A DNA stretch of 64,000 bases from Parcubacteria group bacterium Greene0714_7. Its GTDB lineage: Bacteria > Patescibacteriota > Minisyncoccia > Phycocordibacterales > Phycocordibacteraceae. A program made the translations under genes and the position numbers. Shown here one piece after another: positions 41,579 through 64,000 of this stretch. The notes beneath the pieces are model-generated. The model made no database searches and was not told the origin of the DNA. It worked only from the letters and a program-made list of their open reading frames with translations. Every line of letters begins with the position of its first letter. The first letter of the stretch is position 1. The stretch lies in the NCBI GenBank assembly GCA_007378985.1, contig VMHB01000001.1:252-64251 (forward strand). The letters are read 5' to 3'.

Positions 41579-41935
41579 ATGGCTAAAACGAAAAAGACTT
41601 CGTCTACAAAAACTAGTGTTCAGACGAACACGGGAGTATCTATTCGCCCTTTGAGTGACAGGGTAGTAATCAAACCACTTTCAGCCGAAGAGGCTGGATC
41701 GCGAACACTTTCGGGCATCATTATTCCCGACACAGCAAAGGAGAAGCCTGAACAGGGAAAGGTTGTTGCGGTAGGTCCTGGTAAATGGGATGAGGATGGT
41801 GAAAAACGAATTCCAGTATCAGTAAAAATTGGCGACAAAGTTATGTTCTCAAAGTATGGCTACAGTGAAGTAAAAGTGAACGGTGTTGAGTATTTTATTG
41901 TGAATGAATCAGATATCCTCGCAGTCCTTAATTAG
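41579..41935 (+). CDS. groES: Co-chaperonin GroES
   Basis: IRPLSDRVVIKP..GIIIPDTAKEKP..GKVVAVGPG. Confidence 0.9.
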   Translation: MAKTKKTSSTKTSVQTNTGVSIRPLSDRVVIKPLSAEEAGSRTLSGIIIPDTAKEKPEQGKVVAVGPGKWDEDGEKRIPVSVKIGDKVMFSKYGYSEVKVNGVEYFIVNESDILAVLN

Positions 41936-41991
41936 CCAATAGCTAGGGTATAGGGTTTAGATTTCCCTACACCTGATACCCTAAACCCTAA
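41932..41991. repeat. Telomere-like heptamer repeat element, family 1, copy R1 (TTAGCCAATAGCTAGGGTATAGGGTTTAG...ATACCCTAAACCCTAAT)
   Basis: Contains the groES TAG stop codon. Internal inverted symmetry. Confidence 0.7.
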
Positions 41992-42010
41992 TCACTAACA
42001 AAAACTAATC

Positions 42011-60803: not shown

Positions 60804-62964
60804 TTTTTGGCCAGGGAGCAACCATTAATAGCTTGGTCTCCTTTTGAGGAAGATATGTCCATATCTCTTCAGTTACGAATGGCATGAATGGATGGAGGAG
60901 CCTTAGGAAGTGGTTCAGTGTCTCGTAGAGGAGTTTTTGCCTGGAGGCTTTCTCTTTTTCATTAGCTCCCTTGAGTATTGGTTTTGATGCTTCAATTATT
61001 TCGTCCGCAAATCTGTGCCAGATGAAGTGGTAAAGAATATCAAACGCAAGGTCGATTCTGAATTTTTCAATGTTTTCAGAAACACTCTTTGCCATGTCAG
61101 CTACTTCTATAGCTATCTGCGTATCTTCTCTTGTATACGGAGCATCTTGGGTATTACCACCACCATTCTCAAGGACAAACCGAGCTATGTTCCAAATTTT
61201 ATTTGCGAAGTTTTTATATCCCCGTATTTTTTCTTCAGAAATTTTACTATCGGTTCCTGGTGCCATGCCCGCAATTAAAGAAACACGCACTGCATCCATA
61301 CCGTACTTTGCCGCCATATCCAATGGGTCAATGTTGTTGCCTAAGGATTTTGAAATCTTTCGGCCTTGTCCGTCACGAACTAATCCATGAAGATAGACTT
61401 TTTTGAACGGCACCTCATCGAGGAGGAATCCACTCATGAGAATCATGCGGGCTACCCAGAAGAAGAGAATATCGTATCCAGTTTCAAGGATTGATGTCGG
61501 GTGGAATGTTTTTAAATCTTTTGTTGTGTTAGGCCAGCCCAAGGTCGAGAATGTCCATAATCCAGCAGAGAACCACGTGTCCAAAGTATCTGGGTCTTGT
61601 TCCCACCCGGCGCCTTCTGGTGCAACTGCCCCAACATATGTCTCTTCACCTCGATACCATACTGGTATACGATGCCCGAACCATATTTGGCGTGAAATAC
61701 ACCAATCACGAAGGTTGTCTATCCAGTGGAAGTATGTTTTTTCGTATCTCTCAGGTGTAATGTCTACTGCCTTACTCTCGACGGTCTCCCGCATCATTTT
61801 TCTTAGGGTTGTTTTCTTTCCATTTTTTTCAAACTCAGCATTAACCCCCACAAACCATTGACGCTTTACTTGAGGTTCTATAGTGCCTCCACCACGACTG
61901 TTTGTTGCAATGTTGTGGACATATTTCTCATCAATTTTATCAATGAGCCCTTTTGCTTTGAGCTTCTCAATGATTAGTGGACGAGCTTTTTTGATATGGC
62001 TCCCTTGAAATTCTCCTGCTATAGGGAGGAGAAGTCCGCGGTCGTCTATGACTTGCTCTATATCAAGCCCGTGGCGTTTCGCAATCTCGAAGTCCACCAC
62101 CGAGTGCGCTGGTGTAATGGTCATTACACCCGAACCCATTTCCATGTCAGCTGCTTTGTCTTTAATGATTGTTGCAGTGATGGGTCCGTTTATCCACTCA
62201 AGATCAAATGTCTGTCCATGTTTCCATTCGCTGTACCTCGTATCATCTGGATGCATCACAACATATTTATCACCGAACTTTGTTTCAGGGCGTACAGTGC
62301 CGATGACAAATGGTCCGTATTTGAAATAGTAGAATGGAACGGATTCTTCTACGTAGTCCATTTCATCATCCGAAACGGTAGTTTGGAGTTTTGGGTCCCA
62401 GTTTACGATTCGGTATCCGCGATAAATGAGACCAGCATTGTACATTCGTACAAAGGCCTCCATGACGGCATGGTATCTCGCGCTATCCATAGTGTAGGCG
62501 TAGCGAGAAAAATCTAGTGAAGCGCCGACACGTTTCATCTGTTCAATAATAGTTTTTTCGCTCTCTTTCACGAATACATCTATTCGTTTCAAAAGCTCAT
62601 CTCGTCCAAGGTCATGACGGGTTTTTTTCTCTTTCTTATAGATTTCTCCCTCCACCTTTGACTGGGTAGCGATTGCAGCAGAGTCGGCGCCAGGAATCCA
62701 GAGTGTTTTTTTGCCACTCATGCGAGCATGGCGAATGAGTATGTCTTCAATAACGAGCATCAATGCTGAGCCCATATGGAGAATGCCGGTAACATTTGGT
62801 GGGGGAAGTATCATTGAAAATGACTCCGCGCGTTCTTCCGTACCTTGTGGTGTAACAATAGGTGGGAGGTTGTCGGGATTGAAATAGCCACTTTCTTCCC
62901 AGCGTGTATAGATGGCCTCTTCCGTTTCTTTTGAATTATATGGTTGTAGAAATTTTGGATCCAT
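60793..62964 (-). CDS. valS: Valine--tRNA ligase (compact form)
   Basis: PPPNVTGILHMG (HIGH region) and KISKSLGN (KMSKS region). Confidence 0.85.
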   Translation of the reverse strand: MDPKFLQPYNSKETEEAIYTRWEESGYFNPDNLPPIVTPQGTEERAESFSMILPPPNVTGILHMGSALMLVIEDILIRHARMSGKKTLWIPGADSAAIATQSKVEGEIYKKEKKTRHDLGRDELLKRIDVFVKESEKTIIEQMKRVGASLDFSRYAYTMDSARYHAVMEAFVRMYNAGLIYRGYRIVNWDPKLQTTVSDDEMDYVEESVPFYYFKYGPFVIGTVRPETKFGDKYVVMHPDDTRYSEWKHGQTFDLEWINGPITATIIKDKAADMEMGSGVMTITPAHSVVDFEIAKRHGLDIEQVIDDRGLLLPIAGEFQGSHIKKARPLIIEKLKAKGLIDKIDEKYVHNIATNSRGGGTIEPQVKRQWFVGVNAEFEKNGKKTTLRKMMRETVESKAVDITPERYEKTYFHWIDNLRDWCISRQIWFGHRIPVWYRGEETYVGAVAPEGAGWEQDPDTLDTWFSAGLWTFSTLGWPNTTKDLKTFHPTSILETGYDILFFWVARMILMSGFLLDEVPFKKVYLHGLVRDGQGRKISKSLGNNIDPLDMAAKYGMDAVRVSLIAGMAPGTDSKISEEKIRGYKNFANKIWNIARFVLENGGGNTQDAPYTREDTQIAIEVADMAKSVSENIEKFRIDLAFDILYHFIWHRFADEIIEASKPILKGANEKEKASRQKLLYETLNHFLRLLHPFMPFVTEEIWTYLPQKETKLLMVAPWPKTRV

Positions 62965-62975
62965 AATAGAGAATG

Positions 62976-64000
62976 TTACTCTCCAAGCTTTAAATTCCCA
63001 AGCGCCGACAAATTGCTTGCGGTACGTGTTCCCGATAGGTGACGGAGATAGCCAGCTACACCAATCATGATGGCGTTATCACCAGTGAGTGTTGCATCAG
63101 GAAATAAAAGTTGAATGTTTGAAAACTCTTCATCTACTAATGCGGTAAGTGCGCGTTTAATTTCAGTATTTGCAGAAACACCGCCACCGACCGCTAGGAT
63201 TTTTGGCTCAGTTGCTTCAAGTGCTCGTTTGGTTTTTATTATCACGACATCGCGTGCTGCGTCTTCAAATGCTTCTGCTATTTGTTCTTTGACTTTCTCG
63301 TCAATTTTATCCATGTCACGAAGTTTATAGAGCACTGCGGTTTTTAAACCTGAGAAAGAAAAGTCGCATGTATCGTCCTTCGCCATTGGCCTTGGAAATG
63401 AGATTTCATTTTTTTCACCCCGCGCCCGTGACCTTGAAGCAACTTCAGCAATCTGAGGCCCTCCTGGATAGGGAAGGTCAAGGAGTCGTGCAACTTTATC
63501 GAATGCTTCACCGATGGCGTCGTCTCTCGTTGCTCCAATGTGTTCGTAGACAAAAGGCTCTTTCATTACTACAAACTCTGTGTGCCCACCTGAAATGAGG
63601 AATGCAAGGATAGGGAAGTGCATGGCGTTTAGGGTATAGCGTTTAGGGTTGAGAGGAACTTCGGATTGTTCTGTTGATTGCTGACTATCTACTTCCTGCT
63701 TCAGCAAAGCAGAGAAAATATGCCCCTCCATATGGTCGATCCCAATGACGGGGATATTCCAAGCTCGTCCCAAGCTTTCAGCAAAATTAATACCTGTCCA
63801 GAGTGCTGGCTCAAGGCCAGGGCCTTTTGTTACCGCAATAAATTCAATGTCAGGGTGCTCGGTAGTGTTAAGAAATTCTTCAATATCATTTTTGAATGCT
63901 TCGTTACGAATATTTTTTAAGACATCTTTGTGCACGGCGTCAGTTTTCTCTACTGCTTTGAGCATGCCAGCTTCTCGGAGTGCCTCTTTTGCAAGTGGTG
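62976..64000 (-). CDS. tsaD: tRNA N6-adenosine threonylcarbamoyltransferase TsaD. The N-terminus lies beyond the window end.
   Basis: ..AVTKGPGLEPAL, GIDHMEGH and SGGHTE motifs. The ORF stays open upstream of the annotated M through position 64000. Confidence 0.85.
   Translation of the reverse strand, partial: PLAKEALREAGMLKAVEKTDAVHKDVLKNIRNEAFKNDIEEFLNTTEHPDIEFIAVTKGPGLEPALWTGINFAESLGRAWNIPVIGIDHMEGHIFSALLKQEVDSQQSTEQSEVPLNPKRYTLNAMHFPILAFLISGGHTEFVVMKEPFVYEHIGATRDDAIGEAFDKVARLLDLPYPGGPQIAEVASRSRARGEKNEISFPRPMAKDDTCDFSFSGLKTAVLYKLRDMDKIDEKVKEQIAEAFEDAARDVVIIKTKRALEATEPKILAVGGGVSANTEIKRALTALVDEEFSNIQLLFPDATLTGDNAIMIGVAGYLRHLSGTRTASNLSALGNLKLGE
63624..63655. repeat. Family 1 repeat copy R8 (GCGTTTAGGGTATAGCGTTTAGGGTTGAGAGG), embedded in frame in tsaD
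   Basis: Encodes PLNPKRYTLNA on the tsaD strand, between the conserved HMEGH and FP.LAFLISGGHT blocks. Confidence 0.7.

Follow-up and report, generated by a model that had tools for sequence, protein, structure and literature searches.

TAG-phased palindromic heptamer repeats at gene junctions of a Parcubacteria genome

Genomes of the candidate phyla radiation (CPR) are very small and tightly packed, and almost no repeat biology has been described for them, yet in Parcubacteria group bacterium Greene0714_7 hairpin-forming inserts of 60–90 nt are kept between genes. What holds these inserts together as a family, and why do they persist at the ends of housekeeping genes? The window analyzed here is a stretch of 64,000 nucleotides of that genome (assembly GCA_007378985.1, contig VMHB01000001.1, positions 252 to 64,251), for which an earlier note had listed eight copies of a telomere-like heptamer repeat. 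All eight lie at the positions given, and the description of them as dispersed palindromic repeats at or across the ends of coding sequences, with one inside a gene (element H, within tsaD), holds. The reading favored here, with about even confidence, is that they form a resident, mostly vertically inherited family of palindromic heptamer repeats in a Parcubacteria clade, kept at cistron boundaries as stem-loops.

The repeats are real. The pattern TAGNNNNTAGNNNNTAG (TAG-N4-TAG-N4-TAG), counted on both strands of the whole window, matches 21 times, compared with 0.29 ± 0.62 expected and a maximum of 3 in 100 dinucleotide shuffles. Counting arrays with three or more units in phase gives 11, whereas Markov-2 simulations yield 0.2. 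Every triple-TAG match of the window falls within 41944–63646, and when 1–41.9 kb were scanned with position weights derived from the units, no additional intact copy emerged. The family in the window comprises nine intact copies and one decayed copy (Table 1): three compact hairpins, four single arms, one mini copy, and one copy translated within tsaD. A 69-kb metagenome contig (ENA ERZ27284376) contains the window, and its proteins are identical to those of Greene0714_7. Independently assembled Logan contigs of a second sample (SRR8863435) agree with the window at 100% identity for A, B, D, E, F, G, H, and the mini copy, C being uncovered by the contigs fetched; since eight copies are reproduced in this way, an assembly artefact is excluded. 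The end of one Logan contig falls within the M module of B (described below), as repeated sequence would predict. Rfam gave no match on any element at E ≤ 1.

An arm consists of three to five degenerate heptamers, each a TAG followed by four variable bases. The head-to-tail period of 7 nt is also recovered by Tandem Repeats Finder, at 56249–56281 and 60775–60789. The 47 units represent 21 different heptamers and neighbors within an array differ, so none is a near-perfect iteration of a single unit; the commonest are TAGGGTA and TAGGGTT (seven each), TAGCGTT and TAGCCAC (five each), and TAGCCAT (four). TAG is preceded by T, A, or C in 45 of the 47 units and by G in the other two. Arm polarity is fixed, with an outer end resembling TTAGCCA or CTAGGGT and an inner end formed by TAGGGAA, TAGAGGAA, or TAGGGAG, and TTAGCCA, TAGCCAC, and TAGGGAA recur as modules. 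The copies are 70–94% alike among themselves. Their common feature is the TAG with its 7-nt phase, not the telomere unit. Only seven units equal TAGGGTT, a permutation of TTTAGGG, the arrays are internal and degenerate, and the likeness to telomeric repeats on which the note had built is superficial.

Three elements, A, F, and G, are compact, comprising a TAG arm, a loop of 10–20 nt, and a complementary arm, with stems formed by multi-unit arms of 25–35 nt. Their predicted RNA folds have energies of −19.3, −33.4, and −29.4 kcal/mol, respectively (z = −3.3, −4.2, and −3.4). The internal inverted symmetry noted earlier therefore applies to these three elements, while B, C, D, and E each comprise one arm. 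Of 13 compact elements, 12 block every one of the six reading frames, a property of just 3% of random 70-nt pieces drawn from the window. Elements B and C carry an additional component, here termed the M module, of 28–33 nt (TAGGCGA CGCTTCG TCGGATC CGAAGGG ATC), which can be drawn as two adjacent 5-bp hairpins (CGACG-CTT-CGTCG and GATCC-GAAG-GGATC). The M module of C is 97% complementary to that of B. Four copies are known, in B, in C, and two in the close relative Gw_Eff_bin_311 (L056:1153–1193 and L056:4446–4486). The module follows a TAG arm, lies downstream of gene stops in three of the four copies, and has no Rfam match; across the four, 97.5% of cells pair and two pairs are changed on both sides, which is suggestive of conserved pairing.

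Arms begin at gene ends, on the sense strand. As claimed in the note, the stop codons of groES, lepA, and valS lie inside copies, and each is a TAG of the element itself; the same applies to a 96-aa open reading frame (ORF) and a 35-aa ORF, giving five genes in all. The stop is the first TAG of the element for groES (41933–41935, where the phase of A is broken), lepA, the 96-aa ORF, and the 35-aa ORF, and the second TAG for valS. In the examined CPR loci, 8 of 13 element-borne stops use the first unit (binomial p = 0.035), a tally that combines 6:2:3 from the array scan with two cases added by hand (groES with its broken phase, and the 35-aa ORF). Four ORFs likewise end on the first TAG of an arm in a Levyibacteriota contig (L027). 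As a stop codon TAG is nothing unusual for the genome, ending 21 of 67 long ORFs.

The junctions occupied are of every type. A, C, and G lie between co-directional genes (groES/groEL, LemA/M48 peptidase, and valS/prsW, respectively), D at a convergent junction (lepA and a 209-aa gene), and E and F at a divergent one, and the suspected concentration at convergent gene ends is not seen. Other spacers of the genome measure 10–26 nt, against 60–90 nt for the inserts. The idea that the elements mark transcript ends as terminators is not supported either: none is among 42 terminator-like sites found by a consensus scan for a GC-rich stem followed by a T-run, and separate canonical terminators are present nearby. 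Element B, which starts one base past the groEL stop, has such a strong terminator hairpin directly 3' of it, at 43724–43767.

The history of the elements is visible in relatives. TsaD homologues led to four syntenic loci: L214 (Gw_Eff_bin_311, 91% identical in TsaD), L215 (87%), L217 (78%), and L216 (75%). L214, L215, and L216 all have the valS/prsW element, G, at the corresponding junction, and in all three its second TAG serves as the valS stop. The units have turned over: the left arm reads TAGGGTA TAGCCAT TAGGGTT TAGGGTT in the window, TAGCCAC TAGGGTG TAGGGTT TAGGGAC in L214, and TAGGGGT TAGTGTT TAGTGGC TAGGGTT in L216, and the right arms of the orthologues vary correspondingly. Folded one by one, the L214, L215, and L216 copies give −32.7, −34.7, and −45.2 kcal/mol (z = −2.6, −3.2, and −6.4), with a pairing register that varies among the four orthologues. 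The in-phase mismatch fraction across the four left arms is 0, 0.12, and 0 for T, A, and G, and 0.50, 0.29, 0.62, and 0.71 for positions 4–7. The TAG phase is thus conserved much more strongly than the other four positions, the position of the element is conserved across relatives, and the hairpin is retained despite unit turnover. Altogether G, H, and the mini copy occupy orthologous sites in genomes as distant as 75% TsaD identity; the mini copy is found in L214 and L216 and is absent in L217.

L217 represents the other extreme. Its gene order is the same, and it has zero arrays in 21 kb, with only a two-unit remnant at the valS/prsW junction. It lacks F, having 14 nt at that site, and it lacks the block formed by E, the 209-aa gene, and D. 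There the 35-aa ORF and lepA converge as AAT TAG TCC CTA, their stops 3 nt apart; in the window, arm E, the 209-aa gene, and arm D lie exactly between these two stops. Because a deletion sparing both stops seems unlikely, the block is best read as a putative insertion in the window lineage. Contigs carrying homologues of the 209-aa protein are not syntenic and have no arrays, and so are silent on the empty site. The 35-aa ORF, MLFDKKHKGKVQIVWSVVAVLVIASMILLYFPVFN, is identical at 34 of 35 residues in L217, whose TsaD is only 78% identical, and is probably a real small membrane protein gene missed by gene callers.

Other sites have changed vocabulary. The F site of L214 (L214:16909–16996) holds a hairpin built from different heptamers (CTAGCTT CTAGCTT TCCGCTT TTGGCTT TCAGCTT / AAGCTGG...). 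Comparable AGCTT-type units are present in L056 and L027 and also in the L215 tsaD loop. Element H is read in frame on the minus strand within tsaD, as ...QEVDSQQSTEQSEVPLNPKRYTLNA, and forms a 23-aa surplus loop compared with solved TsaD structures; in L215 this segment is replaced by an unrelated 30 nt, itself heptamer-like (CAGCTTT). The constants across relatives are the site, the 7-nt period, and the hairpin, and TAG is strongly but not absolutely conserved. As a separate observation on tsaD, just past the window end (L207:2637–2751, corresponding to 64188–64302) the first 33 nt of the gene (MKILAIETSCD) are duplicated, the duplicates being separated by a 62-nt hairpin of GTAG/CTAC type (CCCAGTAGCAGAGCGCAGGGCGCTCACTACGGGG...); all four relatives have a spacer of 20–26 nt there.

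Beyond the syntenic loci, contigs were scanned with TAGGGTNTAGGGTNTAG, which specifies 15 bases and for which approximately 1,100 chance matches are estimated in 596 Gb on two strands; only loci with multiple arrays were used. Densely packed arrays that share the architecture and some of the units were found in Levyibacteriota (L027), Saccharibacteria (L022, L083, and L113), Staskawiczbacteria (L102), and a Hainich groundwater contig (L158). A Paceibacterota locus (L056) also uses the same unit vocabulary, and an Elusimicrobiota metagenome-assembled genome (MAG; L034) likewise carries such arrays. L027 has four hairpin elements and two further arrays within 8 kb. The surroundings of lepA homologues, which are at most 62% identical and not syntenic and serve as a background rate only, contain 10 arrays in 892 kb (0.011/kb), compared with 0.5/kb in the 22-kb segment of the window.

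Table 1. Repeat elements and associated genes of the window
Feature	Position	Strand	Description
A	41932–41997	.	Compact hairpin in the groES/groEL spacer; left arm TTAGCCAA-TAGC-TAGGGTA-TAGGGTT-TAGATTT, 12-nt loop, complementary right arm; predicted RNA fold z = −3.26
B	43652–43713	+	Single arm TAGGGGA TAGTGGT TAGCGTT TAGGCGA, running into M module 43681–43713
C	44815–44865	-	Short complementary arm TTCCCTA AACGCTA, then inverted M module 44829–44861; spacer between LemA stop and M48 peptidase start
D	56248–56283	+	Single TAG arm, five units; first TAG is the lepA stop (56249–56251)
209-aa gene	56309–56938	-	Conserved Parcubacteria gene of unknown function, enclosed by inverted arms D and E; block absent in L217
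E	56983–57020	-	Single arm, five units; first TAG is the stop of the 35-aa ORF (57015–57017)
35-aa ORF	57015–57122	-	Uncalled membrane-protein ORF between F and E
F	57142–57212	.	Compact hairpin between the divergent 35-aa ORF and DivIC-like gene (start 57216); predicted RNA fold z = −4.15
Mini copy	58614–58649	+	TAGAACC TAGATTT TAGCCAT...GGCTAG, at the 96-aa ORF stop (58614–58616), upstream of tRNA-Phe
G	60721–60803	.	Compact hairpin in the valS/prsW spacer, on the minus strand; second TAG is the valS stop (60793–60795)
H	63624–63698	+	Array 63624–63655 and the rest of the 72-nt tsaD segment
Decayed copy	~30236–30339	+	B/M-like, with CAG or CGG in place of the TAGs; both matches weak (16.5 and 13.4 bits)

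How might such elements work and persist? In the proposed scheme an arm starts at or beside the stop of the upstream gene, on the sense strand, and is usually followed by the complementary arm, so that the transcript, or single-stranded DNA, could fold into a long imperfect stem-loop at the cistron boundary. Arrays may arise and turn over through heptamer slippage, together with arm-to-arm templated correction or gene conversion, and may persist through a cis action of the stem-loop on mRNA, as an exonuclease barrier, a processing site, or a means of cistron uncoupling. The TAG phase would make a copy harmless at gene ends, any entering frame being closed within 21 nt. Arms may also act as boundaries of sequence gain, as suggested by the 209-aa gene between inverted arms at two convergent stops. 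Action as an RNA stem-loop at cistron boundaries is probable, and a role at the RNA level, in 3'-end protection, processing, or cistron uncoupling, is suggested by analogy with repetitive extragenic palindromic (REP) and Correia elements. The earlier proposal of an mRNA-stability hairpin fits the hairpin potential conserved in orthologous copies.

Because the hairpin and TAG are retained through complete turnover elsewhere in the units, either constraint or continual arm-to-arm templated correction is indicated, and pure neutrality is argued against by the persistence of inserts of 60–90 nt where other spacers are 10–26 nt. Several points weigh against the preferred reading of a retained stem-loop family. 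The elements are dispensable, since L217 keeps the same gene order without arrays, and TAG is not obligatory, since most units of the L214 F-site hairpin lack it; these two facts keep alive both a neutral origin by slippage and template switching and an old MITE-like one (miniature inverted-repeat transposable element). Co-variation of the arms could stem from template-switch mutation rather than from selection. All copies fall within 22 kb, which a general function at cistron boundaries does not predict, and the data examined amount to one 69-kb contig of the source genome and 12–21 kb per relative.

The best-surviving alternative, which is nonetheless unlikely, is that these are active non-autonomous elements of MITE, REP, or REPIN type, moved by a transposase acting in trans, with the arms as terminal inverted repeats and E-gene-D and B...C as composite insertions. 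Mobility would account for the clean sites of L217 for F and for E-209aa-D, with its junction TAG-TCC-CTA, for the copy translated inside tsaD, as in the Rickettsia palindromic elements (RPEs), for the local clustering of copies, for the assembly breaks within the M module, and for a unit vocabulary scattered over several CPR phyla when most lepA-anchored relatives have no arrays (0.011/kb in 892 kb). However, the called genes of the 69-kb contig (ENA ERZ27284376) include no transposase, REP-associated tyrosine transposase (RAYT), or integrase; A and G have no target-site duplication at their borders, and at F there is at most a 3-nt CAT. The copies are no more than 70–94% alike, and the insertions at G, H, and the mini copy are old and have been changing in situ, as their orthologous sites down to 75% TsaD identity indicate. 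REP, RPE, and MITE elements, with which the repeats had been compared, are reasonable look-alikes, and active MITE or REP status is unproven, with no transposase or RAYT among the called genes of the contig and no target-site duplication beyond the possible CAT.

Improbable as well is a neutral mutational by-product, in which slippage favors 7-nt units, quasi-palindrome template switching builds the inverted arm, and the products accumulate in permissive intergenic spots. Heptamer simple sequence repeats are over-represented in many bacteria, which has been attributed to polymerase slippage (PMC4692102), and both the array-free L217 with its unchanged gene order and the replaceable vocabulary at the F site of L214 are what such a process would leave. 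Recent slippage should give perfect copies, however, and the units are degenerate; TAG is conserved while positions 4–7 turn over, the outer-to-inner polarity of the arms is fixed, and the inserts persist at 60–90 nt among spacers of 10–26 nt.

A low probability is given to a selected cistron-boundary device common to several CPR phyla, in which a UAG-N4 arm would be read by a HutP-like oligomeric RNA-binding protein that opens or closes the stem-loop, or in which paired arms would serve as gene-insertion sites between convergent stops, as appears to have happened with the 209-aa gene, or both. Its protein component taken as an explanation of its own, in which the UAG-N4 arrays are sites of an oligomeric protein of HutP or TRAP type whose binding competes with the hairpin and regulates the downstream cistron, is distinctly improbable. 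The resemblance, which is a literature analogy only but formally a striking one for a single arm, is to the exactly three UAG triplets spaced by four non-conserved bases that HutP binds per face, with (UUUAGUU)3 as model RNA (PMC2425495). In the Parcubacteria arrays TAG is the invariant part, the four spacer bases vary, an arm has three to five units and thus at least three UAG triplets, and a stem-loop is adjacent. In HutP targets, by contrast, two XAG-N4 ×3 sites lie around a linker of 12–17 nt, whereas here a single site is followed by its complement rather than by another XAG site. No match to the HutP (Pfam) or TRAP families is present among the contig's called genes, the L214 F-site copy is mostly without TAG, and the repeats occupy many housekeeping junctions, not one regulated leader.

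Intrinsic terminators, telomere-related sequence, eukaryotic contamination, or an assembly artefact are barely credible explanations, even though the hairpins are located at gene ends and the plant telomere unit is matched by some of the heptamers: the hairpins have no T tail behind them and A is internal to the groES-groEL operon, the arrays are of two to five degenerate units with bacterial genes on either side, and the second assembly is identical and orthologues exist in three other MAGs. The artefact and telomere readings are refuted, the latter also by the lack of any long homogeneous (TTTAGGG)n at a replicon end. The wider scan did encounter one true telomere of plant or algal type, more than 2 kb of perfect (AACCCTA)n at the start of a contig labeled as an Alphaproteobacteria MAG (L096:1–2934), which is probably eukaryotic contamination.

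Four further candidates were rejected. No arm in the window has the four G-runs of a G-quadruplex, and the inner AGGGAA and GAGGAA units lie 30–45 nt from the nearest start codons, too far for a Shine-Dalgarno role. A DNA-uptake sequence does not agree with the degeneracy of the units. As for integron attC sites, the contig has no integrase and the elements flank housekeeping genes in both orientations; core sites were not analyzed in detail.

Several other features of the window deserve mention. The decayed copy starts approximately 15 nt downstream of an ORF at 29745–30221 (stop 30219–30221). It adjoins a near-perfect hairpin at 30378–30425 with a stem of approximately 22 bp (CCCACTGTATAGTATAAAATCACG...CGTGATTTTATACTATACAGGGG), and a Logan contig ends in the same spacer. 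A bidirectional terminator between HSP20 and GPI (59368–59472) has a 62-nt structured insertion in its loop; L214 and L217 have a simple AAAAAACCGCCC...GGGCGGTTTTTT hairpin at this junction, and L215 and L216 bear other TAG-rich inserts. At 46725–47170 the 3' end of a tRNA-Ser (GGA) is repeated several times behind the gene, in direct and in inverted orientation, with GAATCTCTCCGCCTCCGC-like sequences at 46789, 46858 (inverted), 46962, and 47143. Two of these 25-nt copies are identical, and they may represent integration remnants or pseudo-tRNA hairpins. A full-length match to bacterial RNase P RNA class A at 49647–50027 (plus strand) scores 79 bits, below the Rfam gathering score of 100; the RNA is probably a diverged CPR version, with a strong terminator behind it at 50034–50065. 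At 1815–3800 the gene for a stand-alone GIY-YIG protein of 85 aa immediately precedes that for a PIF1-family helicase (called at 555 aa, 2133–3800), and a similar small GIY-YIG gene adjoins a gene of the 209-aa family in another Parcubacteria contig (L205).

That stop codons recur at 7-nt intervals, and that the junctions stay fixed while the sequence is reshuffled, suggests either a cis-regulatory layer at cistron ends that has gone unrecognized or a mutational process out of the ordinary. Both array-bearing and array-free MAGs exist among close relatives, and the family offers a tractable comparative system for heptameric repeats, which have long been unexplained in cyanobacteria and Xanthomonas. 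There is a practical side too, in that the repeats break short-read assemblies and that annotated stops of essential genes come from them.

Where, then, does this family belong among known repeats? Like RPE, Correia, and enterobacterial repetitive intergenic consensus (ERIC) elements, the Parcubacteria repeats are palindromic, dispersed, and non-coding, and one of them forms part of the translated frame of a housekeeping gene, tsaD; Correia hairpins also undergo processing in mRNA. However, there is no sequence relation to these elements, no target-site duplication, and no partner insertion sequence, and most Parcubacteria copies supply stops rather than open frames. MITEs share the inverted arms but are flanked by target-site duplications. 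The absence of F and the E...D block from L217 may reflect insertion polymorphism of MITE kind, but orthologous sites hold G, H, and the mini copy as fixed elements. With REP elements, bacterial interspersed mosaic elements (BIMEs), and REPINs the repeats have in common a short, imperfectly palindromic form, a location both at gene 3' ends and within operons, a conserved head containing TAG (GTAG in REPs), and proposed roles in mRNA stability. In contrast to REPs and REPINs, whose palindromes of 20–40 nt carry a GTAG or CGTC head, the present elements are built in 7-nt phase, have G before TAG in only 2 of 47 units, and are accompanied by no cognate RAYT (Y1 transposase) among the called genes of the contig.

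Among described repeats, the nearest are intergenic heptamers: the short tandemly repeated repetitive (STRR) sequences of the cyanobacteria Calothrix and Nostoc and the GGGAATC repeats of Xanthomonas, whose function is unknown (PMC4692102). The statement in the earlier note that no such family has been described is therefore too strong, as these heptamers behave alike overall (PMC4692102), though no description of such repeats in CPR bacteria or Patescibacteria was found in the literature. Heptamer arrays lie close to stop codons in all three genomes, Nostoc preferring the non-coding strand and having few pairs (PMC4692102). In Xanthomonas the heptamers are paired in inverted orientation, sit on the sense strand no more than 50 nt from the stop, and are mostly transcribed (PMC4692102), and conservation of position with variable length and sequence has been shown only between two Xanthomonas species (PMC4692102). 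The Parcubacteria family shares with STRR and GGGAATC repeats the 7-nt unit, arrays of approximately four units, and a mostly intergenic position 0–50 nt from a stop or overlapping it, and with those of Xanthomonas the opposite-strand array pairs able to form a stem-loop, the G-rich strand as sense strand, and a position kept between related genomes under varying length and sequence (PMC4692102). It differs in that the units of one arm are all different, with TAG alone in common, and are not near-perfect copies of a single unit; in that its arms lack four G-runs and have a fixed polarity and recurring modules; and in that the host is a CPR bacterium. On this comparison, the best-supported placement of the Parcubacteria family is as a variant of the intergenic heptameric repeats with REP-like features.

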